DNA of 64,000 nucleotides from Nitrososphaeraceae archaeon. GTDB taxonomy: Archaea > Thermoproteota > Nitrososphaeria > Nitrososphaerales > Nitrososphaeraceae. A program made the position numbers and the translations under genes. Below the pieces are notes generated by a model that did not search any database, was not told the origin of the DNA, and saw only the letters and a program-made list of their open reading frames with translations. This document shows, in pieces, positions 7,170 through 64,000 of this stretch. Each line of letters opens with the position of its first letter. Position 1 is the first letter of the stretch. Location of the stretch: NCBI GenBank assembly GCA_035250975.1, contig DATFEP010000014.1, forward strand, positions 32,001-96,000. Direction: 5' to 3'.

Positions 7170-8615
7170 ATGGAAAGAATGGAACCAGATTCTGGACTAG
7201 AGGATATTCATAAGTTTATTACAAATGAAAATAAATCATTATTAATTAAAGGGAAATCTGGTACCGGTAAGGCCACTCTGGCTCTAGAAATAGCAAAAAC
7301 TCACTCAAACAAATTCGAAGTAATATATATTTCTAGAAATATTTCCGTAAATAATATTTACAATAGATTTCCATGGACCAAAAACCTATTAAAATCATAC
7401 AATATAGTGTCTATCAACACCAACCCTGATTTTATGTTATCTGAAGCGTCAGTCATATTAAATAGTATAATGAATACACTATCAAATAGAATTCAAAAAA
7501 TTGAAGATCCGTTTGTACCTTTAAAGGAAAAACCGAGGCCATTTATAATATTGGAGATATGGGATAACTTAGTAAAAGAACTAGATAACAAAGATATCAT
7601 AAGAACACAAAAAATATTATCTTCCCTAATAGATAAAAATGGAGGTTTTGTCATTTTTTTGACTGAAGACATGGACAATACAGATCTTGATAATTTAATC
7701 GATGGAATCATTACTCTTGATCAATCTTTTTATAAATCATACCGTCTTAGAGAAATGCAAATATACAAACTTAAAGGAACTGGGATAAATAGATCTAAAA
7801 TAGGATTTACGTTAACAGATGGAAGGTTTAGAACATTTTCACCCATCTCTCATAAAATTAATTTTGATAAAACAAATAACTTTGTTTTTTTTTCACATTC
7901 AGAAAAAACATTCTCTACTGGAAATCAAGGATTGGATAATAAATTAAAAGGAGGTTTTAAAAGAGGTAGTATAATCTCATTGGAGATAGAAGAAGAAGTA
8001 GATAGATTTGCCTTTGTTCCAGTTTTCGTTCCACTGGTATTAAATTTTATTTCGCAAAGTTATGGAGCATTAATAATCTCAGCTTGGGATCAACATATAT
8101 CATCCGTTACACGATACATCACTCCGTTTGTAAATAAGAAATTATTGAGTAAATATTTCAAAATAATAGGAAGAGAGAATGTCATTAAAAATGATCTTAA
8201 AAATAGTGAAAGTCAACCATACATCATACCTGGGATAGAAGTAGATTTTATAAATACATTCAAAATATGGAATAAAGAATATGATGAATTGCGAACTATA
8301 ACAGATGGATGTCTTGTAACAGTAGATTTTAGTTTTGTAGAAATACAATATCAAAATGAACTTTTAGATATTCAAAAAGCCATTATTAACTTTTCTAGCA
8401 AAATACGTTCCTCAAATGACTTACTTATAATGGTTTCCAGACCGACCTATAAATCACTAGAAGTAATGAAAAGTGTCAGTGATATTCATTTGAAATTAAT
8501 TGAGTTCAATGGAGCTGTGATGTTGGCCGCTATCAAACCTCAATTCTTTCTTTATAACATACAAACTGATCCGCACGCCGGATATCCAAAGTCACATTTT
8601 ATAAATAGTTCCTAA
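7170..8615 (+). CDS. Two-domain KaiC/GvpD-like RecA-superfamily ATPase with degenerate motifs
   Basis: SLLIKGKSGTGKAT, LIDGIITL, RLREMQIYKLKG, FTLTDGRF; second domain FSTGNQGLDNKLKGGF lacks an intact Walker A. Confidence 0.85.
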   Translation: MERMEPDSGLEDIHKFITNENKSLLIKGKSGTGKATLALEIAKTHSNKFEVIYISRNISVNNIYNRFPWTKNLLKSYNIVSINTNPDFMLSEASVILNSIMNTLSNRIQKIEDPFVPLKEKPRPFIILEIWDNLVKELDNKDIIRTQKILSSLIDKNGGFVIFLTEDMDNTDLDNLIDGIITLDQSFYKSYRLREMQIYKLKGTGINRSKIGFTLTDGRFRTFSPISHKINFDKTNNFVFFSHSEKTFSTGNQGLDNKLKGGFKRGSIISLEIEEEVDRFAFVPVFVPLVLNFISQSYGALIISAWDQHISSVTRYITPFVNKKLLSKYFKIIGRENVIKNDLKNSESQPYIIPGIEVDFINTFKIWNKEYDELRTITDGCLVTVDFSFVEIQYQNELLDIQKAIINFSSKIRSSNDLLIMVSRPTYKSLEVMKSVSDIHLKLIEFNGAVMLAAIKPQFFLYNIQTDPHAGYPKSHFINSS

Positions 8616-53816: not shown

Positions 53817-54545
53817 GTGAATAACAATAACCAGGCCAAGAATATATCAAATAATGTTAGTGGTAAATCAAGGTCCAATCTGAGACATAAATATTTAGTA
53901 GAAATTGTTGGTACATTTATTTTAGTTTATGCCATTGCGTCTGCTGCTACTGTTTATTCAGACAGTGGACAATTAGGAGTAATTGGAATAGGATTAGTAC
54001 ATGCATTAGTACTAACAGCAATCATATACGCTATTGGTTATCGTTCTGGTGCTCAGGTTAATCCTGCTGTTACAATCGGTTTATTAGTAGCAAGAAAAAT
54101 TGGAGGAAAAGAGGCAGCATTATACATAATATGTCAGTTAATTGGAGCCGTATTAGGTGCTGCTGTTGTATATGCAATGTTTGGTTCTGCAATGGCAGCA
54201 AGTGTAACTTTACCATCAGAGAATAATGTAATGAGAGCTTTTATTCTAGAAACAGTAATGACATTTACTTTAGTATATGTAGTTTTAGCTACTACTACTG
54301 CTAAAAATTTCAAAATTGCACCATTGGCAGGAGTTGCAATAGGCTTTACACTTGGATTTAATGTAATATTTGGTGGATCTATAACCGGTGGTTCTCTTAA
54401 TCCTGCTAGATCATTTGGTCCTGCTTTGATGACTGGAAATTTTGATTTTAACTGGCTTTATTGGGTTGCTCCAATCATGGGAGGCATAATAGCAGCAGGC
54501 ATATATAAAACACTACATAGAGACTCAGATCTTGCTTTAGAATAG
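53817..54545 (+). CDS. MIP-family aquaporin
   Basis: SGAQVNPAVT and GGSLNPARSFGP boxes, six TMs, WLYWVAP. Confidence 0.95.
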   Translation: MNNNNQAKNISNNVSGKSRSNLRHKYLVEIVGTFILVYAIASAATVYSDSGQLGVIGIGLVHALVLTAIIYAIGYRSGAQVNPAVTIGLLVARKIGGKEAALYIICQLIGAVLGAAVVYAMFGSAMAASVTLPSENNVMRAFILETVMTFTLVYVVLATTTAKNFKIAPLAGVAIGFTLGFNVIFGGSITGGSLNPARSFGPALMTGNFDFNWLYWVAPIMGGIIAAGIYKTLHRDSDLALE

Positions 54546-54904
54546 CAAAGTAACAAAATCAATTATTTTTAATAGATCATCACCTGGTAAATAACATGGT
54601 TTCTGCCTGCAATGACTATGCGAACTAGACACAAATAATAGAACCAGATTTTAGTCCAGAAACTTAGATGAAACTTCTATAAAGGTCTAGACAAGAACAA
54701 TTAAGAAAATACCATTTTTTAGTTTTTATTCTTAATTTCAATTACTTTTGTTTTCATTTTCATATTTAATGGTTAGAACATAAAAAAAGTATCCTTCATT
54801 ACCACGTAAAAAGTCATGTAAATATATATTATATATAGATAATATAGAAAATAGATATCGTTATAGGTAAAATATATATTACTTTTTCCTTGATGGTTAT
54901 TTAA

Positions 54905-56713
54905 ATGAAAAAATTCAGGACGTCATATTTTGTATCTATTTTAACGGCATTTGTGGTTTCATTAGGTTACATGATGCCAGGTACTGTTCTTGCACAGAAT
55001 GATAATCGTCCAAACATATTGGTAATAATGGGAGATGATTTTGGTTTTTCTGATATAGGTATATTTGGAAGTGAGATTTCTACGCCTAATTTAGATCAAT
55101 TGGGAAAGGAAGGAAAAATCTTGACCAATTATTATACACATCCAGTATGTTCTCCAGCAAGAAGTACTTTTCTTACTGGCGTTGATAATCATATAGCTGG
55201 CATCGGTACTATGTTTGAAAACATTGCTCCCAATCAGGTGAATAAAACAGGCTACGAAACTTATATTACTGATAGAGTTGTCACGGTTGCAGAGCTACTA
55301 CGGGATGCGGGTTATGATACACTTCTTTCAGGTAAATGGCATCTTTCAGGAAAGGGGTATCATAATGGTACTGGACCAGCAGACAGAGGATTTGATCAGA
55401 GCTTTACGTTACTTGAATCTGGAGCCAATCATTTCACGTATGGACCATACTATCCTGGCGGTGTTACTACTTTCATAGATAATGACAAAATAGTTGAAAA
55501 ACCAAATGGTACTCAGTTTTCAAATGAATTTTACACAGATAAAATGATCGATTTTATCAAGAAATCAAAAGAGAACAATAAACCGTTTTTCGGATATCTT
55601 GCATTTCAGGTAGCACATACACCATTCCAGGCTCCACAGGAAAACATAAAGAAATATGAGGGAGTTTACGATGGTGGATGGGATAAAATAAGAGAACAAA
55701 GGTTTGAAAAGCAAAAAGAACTAGGAATATGGCCTACAGATATGACATTACCAAAAAGCTATCCAACTTTTCCAGATTGGAATGCATTGCCTATGGATGA
55801 ACAAAAACAAAGATCACAGATATTTGCAGCACATGCAGGCATGATAGAGGACATGGACTATAATATAGGCAGGGTAATTCAATTCCTCAAAGATACAGGT
55901 CAATATGAAAATACTTTCATCATGTTTACTTCAGACAACGGTGGTAGTGAGCCATCTGATTCTCCTGTGGTAGTTGGAACCTTAGAGGGTGCAAATGATA
56001 AGGAATTAGAGGAATTTAAAGCAGGAGGGTTCAGCGAAACCTTTGATGCCATAGGCGGCAAAGACTCCTATTGGGGATATGGCTGGCAGGGAGCCGTTAT
56101 GTCAAATACTCCATATTCTGGAGTTAAATCAACTAAGTTCAATGGAGGAATAAAACCAGCATTTGTAATAAAGGAACCACATGCAACAAATACACCTGAA
56201 CTTGATATTGTAAAGGAATTTGTTCATGTCAGCGATATGACTCCTACATTTCTAGAATATGCAAATACTATACATCCTGGTTCAGAGTATAAAGGAAAAC
56301 AAGTCAGTCCAATGATGGGAAAATCCATAAAACCACTCTTAGAAGGTACGGTTGAACAGGTACATAGGGATGATGAAACAATATCCTCAGAGATGTTTGG
56401 TAACCGTGCCGTATTCATGGGAGACTGGAAGGCACGTAATAATATATTTCCAATAGGAGATGGACAATGGAAGCTATTTAACATAAAACAAGATATTCGT
56501 GAAGCAACAGATTTGTCAAAAGAACATCCCGATATACTTGAAAAGATGGTTTCTGCCTATGACAACTATGCAAAGGAAGTTGGAATTATACCACCAAAAT
56601 ATAGTGAACAACAAAAGCAAGGAGTAATGGAAATGTTAGCGGCGACCAACCAAACAGAATTTACAGGGTTCCCAATGGAGAAGTTATTAGCAGGCTACCC
56701 AGCGGAACCGTGA
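54905..56713 (+). CDS. Secreted Cys-type (formylglycine-dependent) arylsulfatase, AtsA-like
   Basis: Signal peptide; PNILVIMGDDFGFSD, CSPAR-x-x-x-LTG, GKWHL, AHTPFQ, SDNG, HVSD-x-x-PT. Confidence 0.95.
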   Translation: MKKFRTSYFVSILTAFVVSLGYMMPGTVLAQNDNRPNILVIMGDDFGFSDIGIFGSEISTPNLDQLGKEGKILTNYYTHPVCSPARSTFLTGVDNHIAGIGTMFENIAPNQVNKTGYETYITDRVVTVAELLRDAGYDTLLSGKWHLSGKGYHNGTGPADRGFDQSFTLLESGANHFTYGPYYPGGVTTFIDNDKIVEKPNGTQFSNEFYTDKMIDFIKKSKENNKPFFGYLAFQVAHTPFQAPQENIKKYEGVYDGGWDKIREQRFEKQKELGIWPTDMTLPKSYPTFPDWNALPMDEQKQRSQIFAAHAGMIEDMDYNIGRVIQFLKDTGQYENTFIMFTSDNGGSEPSDSPVVVGTLEGANDKELEEFKAGGFSETFDAIGGKDSYWGYGWQGAVMSNTPYSGVKSTKFNGGIKPAFVIKEPHATNTPELDIVKEFVHVSDMTPTFLEYANTIHPGSEYKGKQVSPMMGKSIKPLLEGTVEQVHRDDETISSEMFGNRAVFMGDWKARNNIFPIGDGQWKLFNIKQDIREATDLSKEHPDILEKMVSAYDNYAKEVGIIPPKYSEQQKQGVMEMLAATNQTEFTGFPMEKLLAGYPAEP

Positions 56714-57347
56714 AACTAGAAAGCAGGAACAAATTAAAATGGTTCTGGAAACGATATATTGAAAGTAGCTCTGGCATGGATTTTTTTGATTGTAACGAGC
56801 GAATTGATACAGTGCTGGATTTCAATTCGAAAGAAAATACTATAAATTTAAATTGTGAAAATATATAGATCGAGTTCTTTGATCGATATTTGATAGATTA
56901 GAAAAAAATGGAAAAAGTTGTAAAAATATTAATACCCTTCTTTATTGATTTTAACATTAAATTATAAAGTTATTTATTCAAATCTTTTAAGTTATTCGAG
57001 ATTAAATCTATAACTCATTCACAAAAAAAGAATATGTAAAAGATACAATTCATATGAATAACTGTGAATGGAGAGGTAATATGTTGGATATGGATGAAAA
57101 AGTTCATGGGTTTGAAAAATAGAATTAAGATGGATATTGTAATTTATTTCAGTTTATTCATCATAATACAAGAAAGCAGGGATTTACGGAAATTCATTGC
57201 TATCAGGTGCGAACCATTCAGAAAATAGAGGAATCAGTTCTTATGAATATACAGAAAAATTTGACTCTTCTTCGTACCCTAAATTTGATAGATAAAAAAA
57301 TTTCTAAAAATATTAATAATTTTGGTATGTATTCATATCAGGAGAAA

Positions 57348-57794
57348 ATGAATCATCAATATAATTTAAATATAATTTTATTAGTAATGATTAGCATTAG
57401 TGGTATATTTTTAGCTTTTCCTCTATTCGAAAATATATATACAAAAGATGATTCTGACGATTCTACCAAACAGAAAGATATTGATAAAAATGAATCAGAA
57501 AACAACAATATAATTCCTAATCAATATATTATATATCTCAATGATAATAAACAAGGTAGCAATACTATTGACCCAATTGAATTTTTTAATTCTGAATTGA
57601 AAGATACTGGAACAGAACTATTACATGTGTACGATAATGTTGCAAAAGGATTTGCAATAAAAGTTCCTAACGAAAAAGTTCTAGAAAAACTGAAAGATAA
57701 TCCATCTGTGAAATATATAGGACAAGATAAAAGAACAGAAGCTTTTACAAATTCAGACAGCGATGAACAGAAAATAACAATAAAAGTAAATTAA
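57348..57794 (+). CDS. Stand-alone peptidase inhibitor I9 (subtilisin propeptide-like) protein, membrane-anchored/secreted
   Basis: IPNQYIIYL...HVYDNVAKGFAIK...LKDNPSVKYIGQD; start ATG 57348 preceded by ggag. Confidence 0.8.
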   Translation: MNHQYNLNIILLVMISISGIFLAFPLFENIYTKDDSDDSTKQKDIDKNESENNNIIPNQYIIYLNDNKQGSNTIDPIEFFNSELKDTGTELLHVYDNVAKGFAIKVPNEKVLEKLKDNPSVKYIGQDKRTEAFTNSDSDEQKITIKVN

Positions 57795-58564: not shown

Positions 58565-59965
58565 ATGGGCCAAGATCCCAACTCAATCAAGGTTTTCATT
58601 AGTTATTCTCATGAGGATAGTGAAAAAGCCAAACGTCTTTATTCAAAATTAAAGGAGTGGAACGTAGATCCTTGGTTTGATCAGGAATCGCTTAGAGCAG
58701 GTGAGAAATGGGAGGTAAAGATAAAGGAAGCAATCAAAAATAGTCAGTATTTTATACCAGTATTATCCAAAAATTCGACAGAGGAAACAGGATACGTATT
58801 AAAAGAGTTAAATGATGCCATAAAAATTCTTAAAGAACTTCCGGACTCTAAGATCTATATAATACCTATACGTGTCGATGATTGCCAAGTACTAGAATCA
58901 ACAGTTGAAGAACTTCAAAAAATTCAAGAACTTCATATTGTTGACCTCTTTCCAGATGAAGAATGGAATAAAGGGTTTCAGAAAATATTGGATGCAATGG
59001 GAATTGAAGATAAACCAGATAAATTAGGTAAGGAATACTGGGAAAGTTTACTGACTGATATCGATAAAAAAGAATGTATTCCAGTCATAGGGGATGGATC
59101 GCTGGAATCCTATGATCGACAGGACGATGAAGCCTTTCTCACAACTAAAGAAATCGCCTTGGAATTGGCAGAAAAAAATGACTACCCTTTGGATGATCCC
59201 TCTCAGTTATCGAAGGTTACTCAATATTTAGCAATACGTGAAAATAATGAAATGTATCCAAAAAATGTAGTTAGTAATATGCTCGGTCGTTTAAAACCTC
59301 CCGATTTTGCAAATAAATATAGAAGATCTCTTCATGCAGTCCTTACCAAGTTAAATTTGCCAATATACATTACTACCACTTACGATCTCTTCATGGAAGA
59401 AGCCTTGAAGAGTGATGGAAAGGAGCCTCACAGTGAGTGTTGTCGCTGGAATGATGACTTGCGTAAGTTGACAACATATGGAGGTTTTCCTTCCGTGTTT
59501 GATAAAAAATCAGGATATAAGATACCTACAGAAAAGGATCCACTAGTATATCATCTTCATGGGTCCATCGAGTATCCTAATTCCATGGTTTTGACCGAAC
59601 GAGATTATTTCGATTTTGTTATTAATATGAATAAAATAGAAGATGAAAAAGTAATGCTACCATCGGTTCTTAGAACTAAAATAACACAATCTACACTATT
59701 ATTTCTTGGATATCGCTTAGATGATATAGATTTTCGTTCAATATTTCAAGGAGCACTCAGCTTTTATGCAAGTACACGTGGTATGAAAAATAATTTTGTA
59801 ATAATACAGCTTCCAGATATCGATGATTACGGTAAAAGAAAAAAGGTAATACAGTATTTAAGAGACAAATCTAAAAATATGTTTCATTTAATTGTTTACT
59901 GGGGAAGTATTGATGAATTTGTAGAAGAATTATTGAAAAATTGGGAAAAATTTAAAAATGGATAG
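58565..59965 (+). CDS. TIR domain + SIR2-like (SIR2_2) fusion protein
   Basis: TIR: VFISYSHED, WFDQESL-x-x-G-x-x-W, FIPVLSKNS, VLKEL, IIPIR; SIR2-like: IPVIGDG, ITTTYD, YHLHG, VLTERDY, LLFLGY-x-L-x-D. Confidence 0.92.
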   Translation: MGQDPNSIKVFISYSHEDSEKAKRLYSKLKEWNVDPWFDQESLRAGEKWEVKIKEAIKNSQYFIPVLSKNSTEETGYVLKELNDAIKILKELPDSKIYIIPIRVDDCQVLESTVEELQKIQELHIVDLFPDEEWNKGFQKILDAMGIEDKPDKLGKEYWESLLTDIDKKECIPVIGDGSLESYDRQDDEAFLTTKEIALELAEKNDYPLDDPSQLSKVTQYLAIRENNEMYPKNVVSNMLGRLKPPDFANKYRRSLHAVLTKLNLPIYITTTYDLFMEEALKSDGKEPHSECCRWNDDLRKLTTYGGFPSVFDKKSGYKIPTEKDPLVYHLHGSIEYPNSMVLTERDYFDFVINMNKIEDEKVMLPSVLRTKITQSTLLFLGYRLDDIDFRSIFQGALSFYASTRGMKNNFVIIQLPDIDDYGKRKKVIQYLRDKSKNMFHLIVYWGSIDEFVEELLKNWEKFKNG

Positions 59966-62900
59966 CTCTGGAGAATCATCCCAATCTTCCAATGGAGAGA
60001 ACAAAAATTATTATGAACCTTACATAGGACCCCGCGCTTTCGGTAGAACTGAGGATGATGAGGAACGATTCTTTGGAAGAGACGAGGAAACTCAAGAGAT
60101 TGTTGCTCTTATTTCTTCTCATAAGCTCGTTTTGATTTATGCCCAATCAGGGGCAGGAAAGACATCCATAATGAATGCTGAGGTTATTCCAACTTTAGAA
60201 AGATATGGATTTATGGTTCTTCCAGTGACCAGAGTGAGAGTTTCTTCCGATATTGTTTATGACCAGTCATCATATGATAATTCGATATATAAGACACAAA
60301 TATCAAATGTTTATATTTTTAATGCTCTTACAAGTCTCAAATCAGATACAGACCCGCAATTATTCAAGAATAAAACATTATCTGAATTTTTAAAAGAATA
60401 TTTCCCTTCTAACAAAGAAAAGAATGGAAAGAACCGTCCACAAGTATTAATATTTGACCAGCTCGAAGAAATTTTTAGCATTTTTCCAAAGAATTGGAAA
60501 GAGCAAAGAGAAGATTTCTTTAACCAAGTAACAAATGCCTTGAATGATATTATTCCACTTCAAGTTGTATTTATTATTAGAGAAGACTATTTAGCTCAAT
60601 TAGATACTTATAGGGATCTCCTTCCTGAAAAATTGAGACCACGTTTTAGACTCGAACGACTGAATCAAGATTCGGCTTTATCAGCAGTTCAAGGTCCATT
60701 AAAAAAAATTCCAAAAGATTTCATGAAAGAAAAAAAAGAGGATGTGGAAAGAGAAATAAAAAGATTAATCAAAGAGTTGATGAAAATTCAAGTTGAAGAT
60801 TCACTAGGTAGGACACATCAGGTAGAAGGTGAATTTATAGAACCAATACAGCTACAGGTTGTTTTTAGGAGATGGTGGAAAAACAAACAAAGCCTTCATG
60901 ACAAAAATAACGAAGACAAAATGGTTGATATATTTGAAGTAGATAAAGCGTTGGAAGATTTCTATGATGAAGCCATTCATCAATGTCTTCAAACTGGAAC
61001 ATCTGAGGATGAAATTAGAAAATGGTGTGAAGAAAAATTAATTACTTCTAGTGGAACTCGTAGTATTGTTCATCGAGGTTTACAGGATACTGAAGACTTG
61101 AAAAATAACGTCATCGAAATTCTTGAAAATAAATATTATTTGATTAGGGGAGAATGGCGTGCTGGAGCAAAATGGTATGAACTTGCACATGATCGATTAA
61201 TTAATCCAATAAAATCATCAAATCAGAGATGGAGAAGAGAGCAGGAATTAAAAAAGAGATCCACGATTAAAAAAGTTGCTATACCATCAATAATAACAGC
61301 TGTTATGATAGGCATAGCTCTTTCTATGTATTTTGCACCTATTCAGTATGATATAAATTCCTTTGAGGATATTAAGTTGAGTGAAACTCCATACATACTG
61401 GCTGTGAATTCAGGTACTGGAGCTGTATATGCTTCTAATGCTCCTGATACTAACATAACTGTGATAGATGGAGAAAGTGACAAAGTTACTAAATATATTC
61501 AGGTAAAATATAAACCGTTCGACATAGAAGTTGATCCGAAGAGGGATACATTATATGTGACACATCCAGAGAGCGATAAAATATCTGTTATAGATTTGAA
61601 AAAAGACCAGGACAATTTTAAATACCTAGACTCCAAGGGACGTCCTTCTTTTATGGGGTTAGATTCTAATAATTCCCTATTATACGTAACTAACTTTGCA
61701 GGTAGCACTGTGTCTGTTATTAATTTAACTACAAACAATGTGCAGGATACTGTGAAGGTGGGAAGAAATCCTATGGGCATAGACATAGATTCCGGGACGG
61801 CATATGTAACTAATTCTAGGGATAACACTGTGTCTGTTATAGATTTAACTACAAACAATGTGCAGGATACTGTGAAGGTGGGAAGAAATCCTACAGATAT
61901 AGAGATAGATTCGGGTAAGGCATATGTAACTAATTGGATAGACAATACTGTGTCTGTTATAGATTTAACTATAAATAAGGTTCAACATACTGTGAATGTG
62001 GGAAGAAATCCTACAGATATAGAGATCAATCCTTCTTCTAGTAAGGTATTTGTAGCTCATTCTGGAGACACAATCGTGTCTGTTATAGATCCACAATTAG
62101 ATATCGTAGTGGGAACATTGAAAGTAGGCGAAGGAAAGCGACCCATTGCATTAGGAATAAATTCAGTTCAAAATATATTATATGTAGCTCGTCATAACGA
62201 TAACTTCATAAGAGCTATAGACATGAAGGACCATCCGTCAACAGAAGTTTTGTCCAATATCCCAGTAGCCACTCACCCTTCTGGAATAGCAATTGCGACA
62301 TCTCAAGATAATAAAACCAAAACGGTATACGTAACTAACAAAGGCTCCAATAGTGTAAGTATCATAGATGGAATTACAAACATGGTTAAAAAAGTTCTTC
62401 AGGTTGGACAAGAGCCCAGCGATATAGATATTAATTCTAACACTAAAAAATTATATGTGTCTAATTCACTTTCAAACAGTATATCTGTTATAGACATAGG
62501 CAAGGAAGAAGTTGAGTATACGATAGATTCCATCGGTAAAAGCCCAATCAAACTAGCAGTTGACGATAATAAAGATTTAATATATGTGATTAACAACGGC
62601 TCTAACAACGTATCTGTTATAAATGGAACTACAAGAGAAGTTATAGGAGATATAAAAGTGAAAGATATGCCTACAGATATTGTTGTCGATTCCAATAATC
62701 ATCTAGTATATGTAACTAATTCTGATAATTCTTCTTCTTCTGTATCTGTTATAAATGGAACTACAAGAGAAGTTATCGGAGACATACCTATGAATCCTAA
62801 TAATACAAAATCTGTTGGAGATAAACCTACAGATATTCTTGTTGATTCAAAGGACAAGCGAGCATATATAGTTACGCAGGATGGTAAAATCGTCAAGCTA

Positions 62901-63095
62901 GAAACGCAAAAAATTACAGATAAGAATAGCCAGTTTAACTATAATATAACGGATTATGTTACAATTGTTGCCGATAATTTTGGTAAACTTCCTGGTTTGG
63001 ATTTAAATTCGGAAATCGCTTTAAATTCAGAATCTGATGAAATTTATATCACTAGTATGGAAAAGAATGTTATGTACATTCTTCATACGAAGTAA
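59958..63095 (+). CDS. nSTAND1-type NTPase + single TM + YVTN beta-propeller repeats (about two propellers)
   Basis: PYIGPRAF...FFGRDEE, AQSGAGKTS, VLIFDQLEE, IREDY, PIQLQ, ELAHDRL; TM VAIPSIITAVMIGIALSMYFA; repeated YVTN...VSVID...VG-x-x-P. Confidence 0.92.
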   Translation: MDSSGESSQSSNGENKNYYEPYIGPRAFGRTEDDEERFFGRDEETQEIVALISSHKLVLIYAQSGAGKTSIMNAEVIPTLERYGFMVLPVTRVRVSSDIVYDQSSYDNSIYKTQISNVYIFNALTSLKSDTDPQLFKNKTLSEFLKEYFPSNKEKNGKNRPQVLIFDQLEEIFSIFPKNWKEQREDFFNQVTNALNDIIPLQVVFIIREDYLAQLDTYRDLLPEKLRPRFRLERLNQDSALSAVQGPLKKIPKDFMKEKKEDVEREIKRLIKELMKIQVEDSLGRTHQVEGEFIEPIQLQVVFRRWWKNKQSLHDKNNEDKMVDIFEVDKALEDFYDEAIHQCLQTGTSEDEIRKWCEEKLITSSGTRSIVHRGLQDTEDLKNNVIEILENKYYLIRGEWRAGAKWYELAHDRLINPIKSSNQRWRREQELKKRSTIKKVAIPSIITAVMIGIALSMYFAPIQYDINSFEDIKLSETPYILAVNSGTGAVYASNAPDTNITVIDGESDKVTKYIQVKYKPFDIEVDPKRDTLYVTHPESDKISVIDLKKDQDNFKYLDSKGRPSFMGLDSNNSLLYVTNFAGSTVSVINLTTNNVQDTVKVGRNPMGIDIDSGTAYVTNSRDNTVSVIDLTTNNVQDTVKVGRNPTDIEIDSGKAYVTNWIDNTVSVIDLTINKVQHTVNVGRNPTDIEINPSSSKVFVAHSGDTIVSVIDPQLDIVVGTLKVGEGKRPIALGINSVQNILYVARHNDNFIRAIDMKDHPSTEVLSNIPVATHPSGIAIATSQDNKTKTVYVTNKGSNSVSIIDGITNMVKKVLQVGQEPSDIDINSNTKKLYVSNSLSNSISVIDIGKEEVEYTIDSIGKSPIKLAVDDNKDLIYVINNGSNNVSVINGTTREVIGDIKVKDMPTDIVVDSNNHLVYVTNSDNSSSSVSVINGTTREVIGDIPMNPNNTKSVGDKPTDILVDSKDKRAYIVTQDGKIVKLETQKITDKNSQFNYNITDYVTIVADNFGKLPGLDLNSEIALNSESDEIYITSMEKNVMYILHTK
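61683..62030 (+). repeat. Three tandem 120-bp coding repeats (YVTN blades)
   Basis: Lines starting 61681, 61801 and 61921 align in register; hand count about 84% identity between copies 1 and 2, including a 51-bp perfect block. Confidence 0.95.
62610..62776 (+). repeat. 35-bp exact duplication between adjacent blades of the second propeller
   Basis: gtatctgttataaatggaactacaagagaagttat at 62610 and 62742. Confidence 0.9.
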
Positions 63096-63289
63096 TAACT
63101 AGTGCAAGGTTTAAAGAGTGAAAGATCAAGTGTATATTGGGCACCGTAGATATAAAATATCTAATAATATACTGCATATATAAAAAAGTAAATATGTAAA
63201 CATATTAACAAAATTTTCACTTTGATTTATAGGTTGTCAATAAATAAATAAATTCATTATGTAAAGTGTCTATAATGATCATGACATAG

Positions 63290-64000
63290 TCTTCTATCCT
63301 AAATTTGGCAGTTAGCGAGTAAGCATTTAACTGTAGTAGACACAGATAGATCCTTTTTTTCATACCTTGTAAATAATTTCCTGAACCTATTATGCCATGA
63401 ATTCGTTCTCTCCACGTGTCATCTTCTTGTAGGACGTCTGTTATTATTGAGTTTTTTTTCTTCTCTTATGCGTTGTATATGTAAATATATTCTCATTTGA
63501 CAATTGTTCTGTTTTTTGAATCGTGTGTTTTATAAAGAGACATGGTTGCTTTTTCATCTTCCTGTTTGTATATTTCGTTGTTGATTTTGAAAAAGGTCTT
63601 TTGATAACTATGATGTGAAATTGCAGCAGTAATGTCATGAGAATTTGGAGATGTTACAACAGTAGAACGTGTGATACCTTGCTTACGTGTTAAAATATGT
63701 CTTTACGTTTTAAACCTTCTTCTATCAACAGGATCATGTCAGGTAATCGCCTTTCAAATGTCATTTTACTGATATCTTTCAAGAGACTGCCATTTCCAAG
63801 TTATTCACTGTTTATTAAGAATACCAAGTTGACTCTCTTGCCGAAATCTTCCGGACATGTTGAACCAGAACCATATCCTTCCGGTACCATATATTTTTCA
63901 TCAACATCCAGTCCTCAGGAGAATTATGATACCATCAATTAGTTTTCCCTACGGTAGATTAGGACGGCCTGTGGTGTTATCCGCTTTCTCATCCGGTGCA
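63290..64000 (-). mobile_element. Decayed IS5-family element, same group as 22162-22885, running off the window end
   Basis: GRPNLP*GKLIDGIIILLRTGC, RHILTRKQGI...SHD, HVERTNSWHNRFRKLFTRYEKK; shares ttttcataccttgtaaataattt with about 22242. Confidence 0.85.

Follow-up and report, generated by a model that had tools for sequence, protein, structure and literature searches.

How a cell might couple recognition on its outer face to an NAD-directed effector in its cytoplasm is the question raised by a pair of overlapping genes in a Nitrososphaeraceae archaeon. The 64-kb stretch of DNA that we analysed (the window; C44:32001-96000) has a G+C content of ~30% and comes from a genome of 2.49 Mb in 91 contigs, of which C54 and C32, referred to below, are two others. 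Gene 1 (58565..59965, + strand) is an open reading frame (ORF) of 466 aa that encodes a predicted cytoplasmic protein with TIR and SIR2 domains, and gene 2 (59958..63095, + strand) is an ORF of 1045 aa that encodes an nSTAND1 NTPase followed by a predicted transmembrane (TM) helix and, probably, two YVTN propellers. The first-pass annotation of this locus had described two ORFs with an 8-bp overlap, and both lie exactly where it placed them: the overlap, ATGGATAG (59958..59965, + strand), combines the stop codon of gene 1, which ends in AAA AAT GGA TAG, with the ATG of gene 2. Together the genes make up one copy of a two-gene module that is widespread and unnamed, in which a SIR2 gene is followed by a gene for an nSTAND1 protein with a TM segment and C-terminal repeats.

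Conservation of the gene pair

Related loci were collected from one genome per species using an alignment of 11 NTPase-module sequences (A2) as query. This search returned at least 597 pattern matches, at least 540 of which encode relatives, and detailed counts were made on the best 80 loci, seven of which coincide with loci that also bear another handle (L026, for example, is L034). The hidden Markov models (HMMs) for SIR2, TIR and the NTPase were built from alignments made in this analysis. By this measure, a SIR2-family ORF is located upstream on the same strand at 80 of the best 80 loci, and in 76 of the 80 its stop codon falls between -30 and +150 nt of the first aligned NTPase codon. Because the same pairing recurs at every one of these loci, the adjacency of gene 1 and gene 2 is not due to chance, and the tight coupling of the two genes proposed earlier is borne out by the operon survey. 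A TM segment was called behind the NTPase in 75 of the 80 loci. Among the five others, L059 is fragmented, L070 is cut at a contig end and L096, from Methanosarcina, has a weaker hydrophobic stretch (Kyte-Doolittle 1.36); the remaining two are considered below. The locus in the window has both marks of the module, a coupled upstream SIR2 gene and a TM segment after the NTPase.

The best 80 loci come mostly from the Chloroflexota, and also from the Acidobacteriota, Planctomycetota, Actinomycetota, Methanosarcinaceae, Methanoperedens and Nitrososphaeraceae. The earlier view of this pair as an archaeal system therefore does not hold, as most of the best 80 loci are bacterial. A query with the single protein retrieved two loci only, L007 from an Acidimicrobiales bacterium and L008 from a Deltaproteobacterium; these are more distant, and both combine a TIR-SIR2 protein with an nSTAND1-TM protein, to which L008 adds a WD40 domain. 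Closer to home, the SIR2 gene is present upstream at 11 of 12 loci from Nitrososphaeraceae and this genome, and the twelfth is cut by a contig end.

The genome itself contains three nSTAND1 genes, each with a SIR2 gene directly upstream. In addition to the C44 pair at 58565-63095 (TIR-SIR2 and nSTAND1-TM-YVTN), there is a pair on C54 (L005 6899-11613) that encodes a TIR-SIR2 protein of 464 aa and an nSTAND1-TM-propeller protein of 1101 aa, and a pair on C32 (L004 6084-9655) in which SIR2 stands alone (302 aa, with TTNYD intact) beside an nSTAND1-TM-TPR protein of 888 aa. Behind the C54 pair there is an ORF of 317 aa without a match in Pfam. Between the C54 copy and that of a genus mate the identity is 95%, whereas C44 and C54 share 59% identity, and the paralogues are therefore either old or separately acquired. 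The description of the partner as a TIR-SIR2 protein thus holds in one part and not in the other: SIR2 is constant (80/80), but TIR is N-terminally fused to it at only 7 of the 80 loci, as judged with our own HMM, and the C32 partner is SIR2-only.

The NTPase is carried by 8 of the 121 sampled genomes of the family, this genome included, and by one of 13 other genomes of the same genus. Decayed copies were observed among the Nitrososphaeraceae. At L029 5373-9120 the NTPase is interrupted by a TAA stop and split from the propeller, at L027 8551-9468 the SIR2 gene is split in two, and the locus at L059 is fragmented. The patchy spread and the broken copies are more in keeping with an accessory conflict gene than with a developmental pathway that is built in. 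A quick tree was inferred by maximum likelihood from 84 NTPase modules, comprising 79 of the 80 loci (the fragment L059 was left out), the three copies of this genome, L007 and L008. All Nitrososphaerota rows group with the three own copies in one clade (SH-aLRT 100), and this clade is nested in a set of 16 rows that also includes Chloroflexota (SH-aLRT 96). The rows from Methanosarcinaceae and Methanoperedens have a clade of their own (SH-aLRT 100) beside a Brocadia row. This topology is consistent with two transfers from bacteria to archaea, in a tree from a short search whose root is unknown and in which the Nitrososphaerota rows are of deviant amino-acid composition.

The SIR2 partner and its decaying active site

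To the N-terminal side of gene 1, a TIR domain spans residues 10-142 (58592..58990, + strand) and matches Pfam TIR_2 with 91.4 bits (E 7.5e-26; cut-off 28). Its closest relatives, by PDB sequence and by Foldseek, are the TIR-APAZ chains of SPARTA. E81 (codon 58805..58807, + strand) is the putative catalytic glutamate of this domain: in a phmmer alignment it falls on Glu-77 of TIR-APAZ chains (8z92_E among them), a residue that we take to be catalytic in SPARTA, and a Glu is kept in this column by 4 of 4 TIR-fused partners in an alignment of 11 partner proteins, gene 1 included (A1). The remainder of gene 1, residues ~155-466 (59027..59962, + strand), is a SIR2 domain of the SIRim type and is the part that is constant in all partners of alignment A1. 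Pfam SIR2_2 (PF13289) matches residues 267-421 only (87.8 bits, cut-off 24.5; E 9.7e-25), and residues ~155-266, which are present in all 11 aligned partners, make up the N-terminal half of the domain. In the AlphaFold2 model of gene 1 (pLDDT 80.8), the closest folds to the SIR2 part are KomC, ThsA, DSR2 and SIR2-HerA, with a Foldseek TM-score of ~0.7 on the target. These four, like SPARTA TIR-APAZ, are anti-phage NADases, several of which act as filaments. No 19-residue window of gene 1 exceeds a Kyte-Doolittle value of 1.6, and thus the protein has no hydrophobic segment of its own.

The SIR2 active site is incomplete. At the position of the catalytic Asn in the TTNYD motif, the window sequence carries an ACT codon for T272 (59378..59380, + strand), so that gene 1 reads TTTYD where the 10 other partners in alignment A1 (n=11) all have TTNYD; T272 likewise faces the Asn of TTNYD in SeThsA (7uxt_B) in a phmmer alignment. 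This is not an assembly slip, since a contig from an independent metagenome DNA run of another study (X2; record 6, 59128-60347) is identical at the T272 codon. The His that precedes Gly is kept, with H332 in YHLHG aligning to KLHG of SeThsA 7uxt_B (phmmer). Given the replacement of the catalytic Asn by Thr, the SIR2 domain is probably not the working NADase at this locus.

A wider comparison places this loss in a pattern. Of the aligned partners from the best 80 loci, 71 of 76 have N in the Asn column and 61 of 77 have H in the column of the His before Gly; in the L007 and L008 partners, F replaces this His. Besides TIR, the optional additions to the partner are CHAT, at either end, and EAD7, at the C-terminus. 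Of the partners that carry an extra domain, 11 of 20 have a degenerate SIR2 site, as against 7 of 57 without one (Fisher p 3e-4, a value overstated by the non-independence of relatives), and among those fused to TIR or CHAT the count is 9 of 10. SIR2 is thus always kept while its active site decays along with the addition of TIR or CHAT, which points to the re-use of an enzyme as an adaptor, and the pattern provides a testable idea of how a separately encoded effector is recruited. Two tandem SIR2 genes were observed ahead of the nSTAND1 gene at L026 4063-6299 (the same place as L034), L082, L088, L100 and L106; at L026 and L082 the copy adjoining the NTPase has lost the His before Gly. Such tandem genes could represent a catalytic copy and an adaptor copy. 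When the NTPase module (residues 1-435) was co-folded with residues 150-466 of gene 1, its SIR2 part, two runs made without controls gave values of 0.01 and 0.27 against a mark of 0.32.

A predicted membrane-spanning NTPase

The nSTAND1 NTPase module occupies residues 21-416 of gene 2 (60018..61205, + strand) and matches PF20703 with 98.5 bits (Pfam cut-off 27.1). Only ~20 residues lie ahead of it, so that gene 2 is without an N-terminal effector. Walker A is SGAGKTS at residues 64-70 (60147..60167, + strand), where S64, G65, G67, K68 and S70 are invariant both in alignment A2 and in A3, an alignment of 43 rows; in the Walker B region, LIFDQLEE (60444..60470, + strand), D167, Q168 and E170 are invariant in the same alignments. 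The earlier domain calls, with intact Walker motifs and no effector fused to gene 2, are in this way supported by Pfam and by both alignments. A profile of the NTPase module found nothing meaningful among PDB sequences (best E 0.048).

Behind the NTPase, gene 2 contains a single strongly hydrophobic segment, residues 436-463, with a 19-residue Kyte-Doolittle maximum of 2.02. Hydropathy, flanking charges and homologues together predict a TM helix at residues ~440-462 (61275..61343, + strand) in the N-in/C-out orientation, as the flank on the N-terminal side is rich in K and R and that on the C-terminal side is acidic. Of the 120 listed homologues, 117 have the segment behind the NTPase, at residues ~410-520, whichever C-terminal domain follows (YVTN, TPR or NHL); P0077, P0083 and P0092 are without it. 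In 117 of the 117 homologues that bear the segment, K+R is higher before than after it, with means of 6.7 and 1.1 per 15 residues. One hydrophobic segment with positive-inside flanks throughout the family agrees with the single membrane span and the topology put forward in the first-pass annotation. The repeats of gene 2 are therefore predicted to lie outside the cell, because the NTPase needs cytoplasmic NTP and its partner has no signal sequence. For YVTN propellers, an extracellular precedent exists in an archaeal S-layer protein (1l0q_A).

The predicted ectodomain, residues 469-1043 (61362..63086, + strand), has 13 YVTN-type blades according to TIGR02276 and the AlphaFold2 model, and probably folds into two propellers. 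The TIGR02276 repeat of NCBIfam is matched in 8 stretches with 220.5 bits (cut-off 27.85), and Pfam also matches propeller families in gene 2. In the AlphaFold2 model (mean pLDDT 81.4) the NTPase module is followed by a long helix (412-456) and then by 52 strands (469-1043), which make 13 four-stranded blades, and 'about two propellers' is hence a fair description. In Foldseek, the model as a whole matches full-length Apaf-1 best (3shf, E 3.9e-29), and its propellers share 25% identity with 1l0q_A, the YVTN propeller of the archaeal surface-layer protein. Within the ectodomain, a tandem repeat of 120 bp (61706..62026, + strand; 2.7 copies, 88% matches) marks near-identical, recently duplicated YVTN blades, and the database variant P0001 (1005 aa) is short of exactly one 40-aa blade in this region. 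Blade number either differs between strains or collapses in assembly.

Across the module, the outer domains are swapped among close NTPases, where YVTN, WD40, TPR and NHL repeats all occur and WD40-type propellers account for 39-43 of 70 post-TM regions. The survey of sensor and effector swapping that had been suggested for this locus thus found exchange on both sides of the module, in the outer domains and in the TIR, CHAT and EAD7 add-ons of the partner.

Possible functions and known relatives of the module

We lean, with slightly better than even confidence, towards an outside-in conflict or alarm system, with a TIR NADase brought to a membrane STAND switch by the SIR2 domain as docking module. 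In such a system a surface ligand or damage (a virion, a neighbouring cell or an envelope breach) would cluster or release the ectodomains, upon which the cytoplasmic nSTAND1 modules would form oligomers at the membrane with NTP. The SIR2 domain would then dock the partner protein onto the nSTAND1 assembly, where proximity would switch the effector on. Because E81 is intact and the catalytic Asn of SIR2 is lost, the effector in the C44 pair would most likely be TIR, which might cleave NAD+ or produce a nucleotide signal, with the degenerate SIR2 (T272) acting mainly as an adaptor; in SIR2-only pairs such as that on C32, SIR2 itself would be the effector. Growth arrest, cell death or a downstream signal could be the outcome. 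Apaf-1 as the top fold match of the whole model suggests an NLR-like build for gene 2.

Several points weigh against such a system. To our knowledge, known STAND sensors work by contact between sensor and NTPase in one compartment; the membrane rules this contact out and therefore a different coupling, by clustering, must be assumed. We also know of no characterised precedent in prokaryotic immunity for the sensing of viruses from outside. L075 (Methanoperedens) and L084 (Pyrinomonadaceae), the remaining two of the best 80 loci, are genuinely TM-less and have TPR-type C-termini, so that the membrane is not essential to the module. In the C44 pair, the SIR2 Asn is lost and the enzyme activity of TIR is predicted only. 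The upstream neighbours are ordinary genes rather than defence genes (an aquaporin-type channel, sulfatases, a peptidase and an RTX-repeat protein), and PADLOC-DB v2.0.0 has no model for the gene pair.

The ordinary neighbours would sit more easily with envelope or cell-cell signalling, in which the outer repeats read the state of the S-layer or matrix, or kin contact, and the NTPase with SIR2/TIR tunes metabolism or developmental cell death. We consider this alternative, the strongest of those weighed here, rather unlikely. The module is concentrated in filamentous or aggregate-forming lineages (Anaerolineae, Methanosarcinaceae, Nitrososphaeraceae) and its outer domains are of generic protein- or glycan-binding kinds, as such signalling would have it, but a module carried by only 8 of 121 family genomes, with some copies broken, is not what it leads one to expect. 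Moreover, every one of the closest folds to the partner belongs to an anti-phage NADase, and the swapping of effectors (TIR, CHAT, EAD7) is typical of conflict systems.

It is improbable that the pair works from the inside out, with the NTPase and a SIR2-type NAD-dependent modifier controlling the display, anchoring or turnover of a structural or adhesive surface propeller. The presence of YVTN propellers in archaeal surface layers (1l0q_A), the variation of blade number by recent tandem duplication and the persistence of SIR2 despite its decayed NADase residues can all be read in this way; however, unrelated outer domains on close NTPases are hard to square with one structural role, TM-less members exist, and STAND NTPases are known in general as signal-dependent oligomerising switches and not as assembly factors. 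That the hydrophobic segment is no membrane helix and gene 2 is a cytoplasmic, Apaf-1-like STAND with a separate effector is very improbable, since, for all that Apaf-1 is cytoplasmic, WD40 and TPR repeats are usually intracellular and AlphaFold2 confidence is <50 over residues 438-466, a 23-30-residue segment of Kyte-Doolittle 2-3 recurs in the same place in 117 of 120 homologues, with one-sided flank charges in 117 of 117 that would be unexpected for a buried helix.

Returning to the outside-in conflict or alarm system, its general kind is already known, namely STAND/NLR-like systems with NADase effectors, and it is the pairing of a constant SIR2 gene with an nSTAND1-TM gene that main-text descriptions do not include. 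In the main texts of the papers searched, we found no SIR2 gene paired with nSTAND1-TM, and in PADLOC gene 1 gave partial matches at domain level only (Aga TIR, ThsA SIR2, PDC-S25); the sole match of gene 2 is mad8 (E 0.0028 over 68 residues), with no match to Avs. The expectation that the pair would fall outside the named systems is upheld by both sources. Gene 2 also departs from the classical NLR/Avs layout, as the effector is encoded by the separate gene 1 instead of being fused N-terminally to the NOD, and the repeats are predicted, from the single TM between them, to be in another compartment than the NOD.

The nSTAND1 clade was named by Kaur et al. (2021; eLife, PMC8195603), whose main text describes it in STAND-FGS systems with fused N-terminal effectors or effector-associated domains (EADs). 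Our pair resembles the nSTAND1 conflict systems presented there in belonging to the same clade (PF20703), with variable 'antigen-receptor-like' C-termini and effectors such as TIR, and in its occurrence in bacteria of multicellular habit and some archaea (PMC8195603), but it differs from those of the main text in having a separate, constant SIR2 gene and a TM between NTPase and sensor. 'SIR2' occurs once in that text (PMC8195603), in another context, and the word is absent from Kaur et al. (2020).

Avs5 (AVAST type 5; for example EfAvs5, PMC11897194) likewise places a SIR2 effector under the control of a STAND NTPase with a C-terminal sensor and is activated by assembly; there, however, the effector is fused and the protein cytoplasmic, whereas here the effector gene is separate, the NTPase belongs to another clade and the sensor is predicted to be outside. 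The loss of the SIR2 Asn and the addition of TIR also set our pair apart. An identity with Avs5 was therefore rejected, on the separate effector gene, the want of an Avs match in PADLOC and the TM helix. Thoeris, which combines ThsB (TIR) with ThsA (SIR2-SLOG), similarly has TIR and SIR2 in one system, and ThsA is a near relative of the SIR2 part in both sequence and fold; here, in contrast, both domains are in one chain, an NTPase partner is present, and there is no SLOG or Macro. Thoeris was rejected as an identity, since Pfam gave no SLOG/Macro match and ThcB4 (Thoeris type III, NCBIfam) scored 24.5 bits against a cut-off of 220; the matches to Thoeris in NCBIfam and PADLOC are partial and far under the cut-offs.

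Membrane-bearing STAND proteins have been put forward before. The main texts of a 2022 preprint by Kibby et al., of Dore et al. (PNAS 2024, PMC10907252) and of a 2025 preprint (10.1101/2025.11.14.688446) present, respectively, a predicted multi-TM NACHT, a NACHT-TM-CLec target of a diversity-generating retroelement (DGR) predicted to be periplasmic, and 'transmembrane STAND ATPases' fused to proteases and found with Pepco. As in our pair, these are TM-bearing prokaryotic STANDs with possible intramembrane or periplasmic sensing, but they are of other NTPase clades or architectures, and none of those in the main texts has a constant SIR2 gene. The earlier claim that a split, membrane-spanning layout would be new is accordingly kept for the pair, which matches none described in main texts, and not for membrane-spanning STAND proteins as such, which are already in print as predictions. 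In the main text of a 2026 STAND survey from the Gao and Koonin groups, recognition is framed as taking place inside cells.

Two eukaryotic comparisons are instructive. The apoptosome protein Apaf-1 also has a NOD followed by two tandem beta-propellers, but it is soluble, binds cytochrome c in the same compartment and recruits a caspase through a fused CARD, unlike gene 2 with its TM between NOD and propellers and its TIR-SIR2 partner; TM-scores are low (0.3), so that the likeness is one of layout and not of detail. Animal Toll-like receptors (TLRs), by analogy only, share outer repeats, a single TM and TIR signalling inside; they carry TIR on the receptor chain itself and lack an NTPase, in contrast to the STAND NTPase and separate TIR-SIR2 here, and no homology of receptors is implied.

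A wider proposal, possible but doubtful, is that prokaryotes, ammonia-oxidising archaea included, have true outside-in innate receptors which unite TLR-like and NLR-like logic in one module. The ectodomain, whether propeller or TPR, would bind a virion, a foreign cell surface or a damaged S-layer, and the SIR2 adaptor would load TIR, or elsewhere CHAT or active SIR2, onto an NTP-driven assembly. If this were true, this genome would possess a small receptor repertoire in its three paralogous pairs, whose ectodomains differ. All characterised prokaryotic STAND/NLR-like immune sensors known to us read cytoplasmic signals; were the sensor outside, bacteria and archaea could couple surface recognition to NAD-directed effectors, and the module would offer a tractable model for a STAND switch driven without contact between sensor and NOD. 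For the ammonia-oxidising archaea, in which virus defence and cell-cell biology are almost unknown, the locus marks strain-variable candidate genes.

Genomic surroundings and expression

Upstream of gene 1, the region 53817-57794 contains an aquaporin-type channel ORF (242 aa, read from its translation), a gene for a secreted sulfatase (602 aa) and one for a 195-aa protein with a peptidase-inhibitor I9 domain, which in translation has an apparent single hydrophobic stretch. Further upstream there are genes for an alkyl sulfatase, an M54 peptidase and an RTX-repeat protein. A TATA-like run upstream of gene 1 was considered as a promoter but set aside, as it is too near the ATG to be interpreted without transcript ends.

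DNA near-identical to the locus is present in metagenome runs of several studies. Run X2 covers 29 of 30 bins of the locus, and one of its contigs spans the gene junction. Short contigs from RNA libraries (three studies) cover parts of gene 1 and of gene 2 with >=95% identity, in 4-5 of the 30 bins, and none of them bridges the junction between the two. These contigs, which could stem from DNA carry-over, give a weak hint that the gene pair is transcribed.

The downstream side was followed on L006, a stretch of the same contig around and beyond gene 2 in which the window ends at position 8001. From 63100-64000 of the window to approximately L006 9600 (~2.5 kb), the only ORF of at least 100 aa is one of 100 aa with no Pfam match. 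A six-frame HMM search found no decayed SIR2, TIR or NTPase copy in this ORF-poor stretch, and no tRNA gene is present in L006. Beyond it, at L006 9667-15583 (2.6-8.5 kb past gene 2), are genes for a MAP3K_TRAF_bd/TPR-S protein (461 aa, - strand), a TIR-TPR protein (402 aa, + strand) and an all-TPR protein (905 aa, - strand), the first two of which lie 2.6-5.5 kb downstream of gene 2. At L008, a TIR-TPR gene is located directly downstream of the nSTAND1 gene, and at L089 and L099 ORFs matching the TIR HMM lie just downstream. The downstream TIR genes may be a loose third component of the module or belong to a small TIR island.

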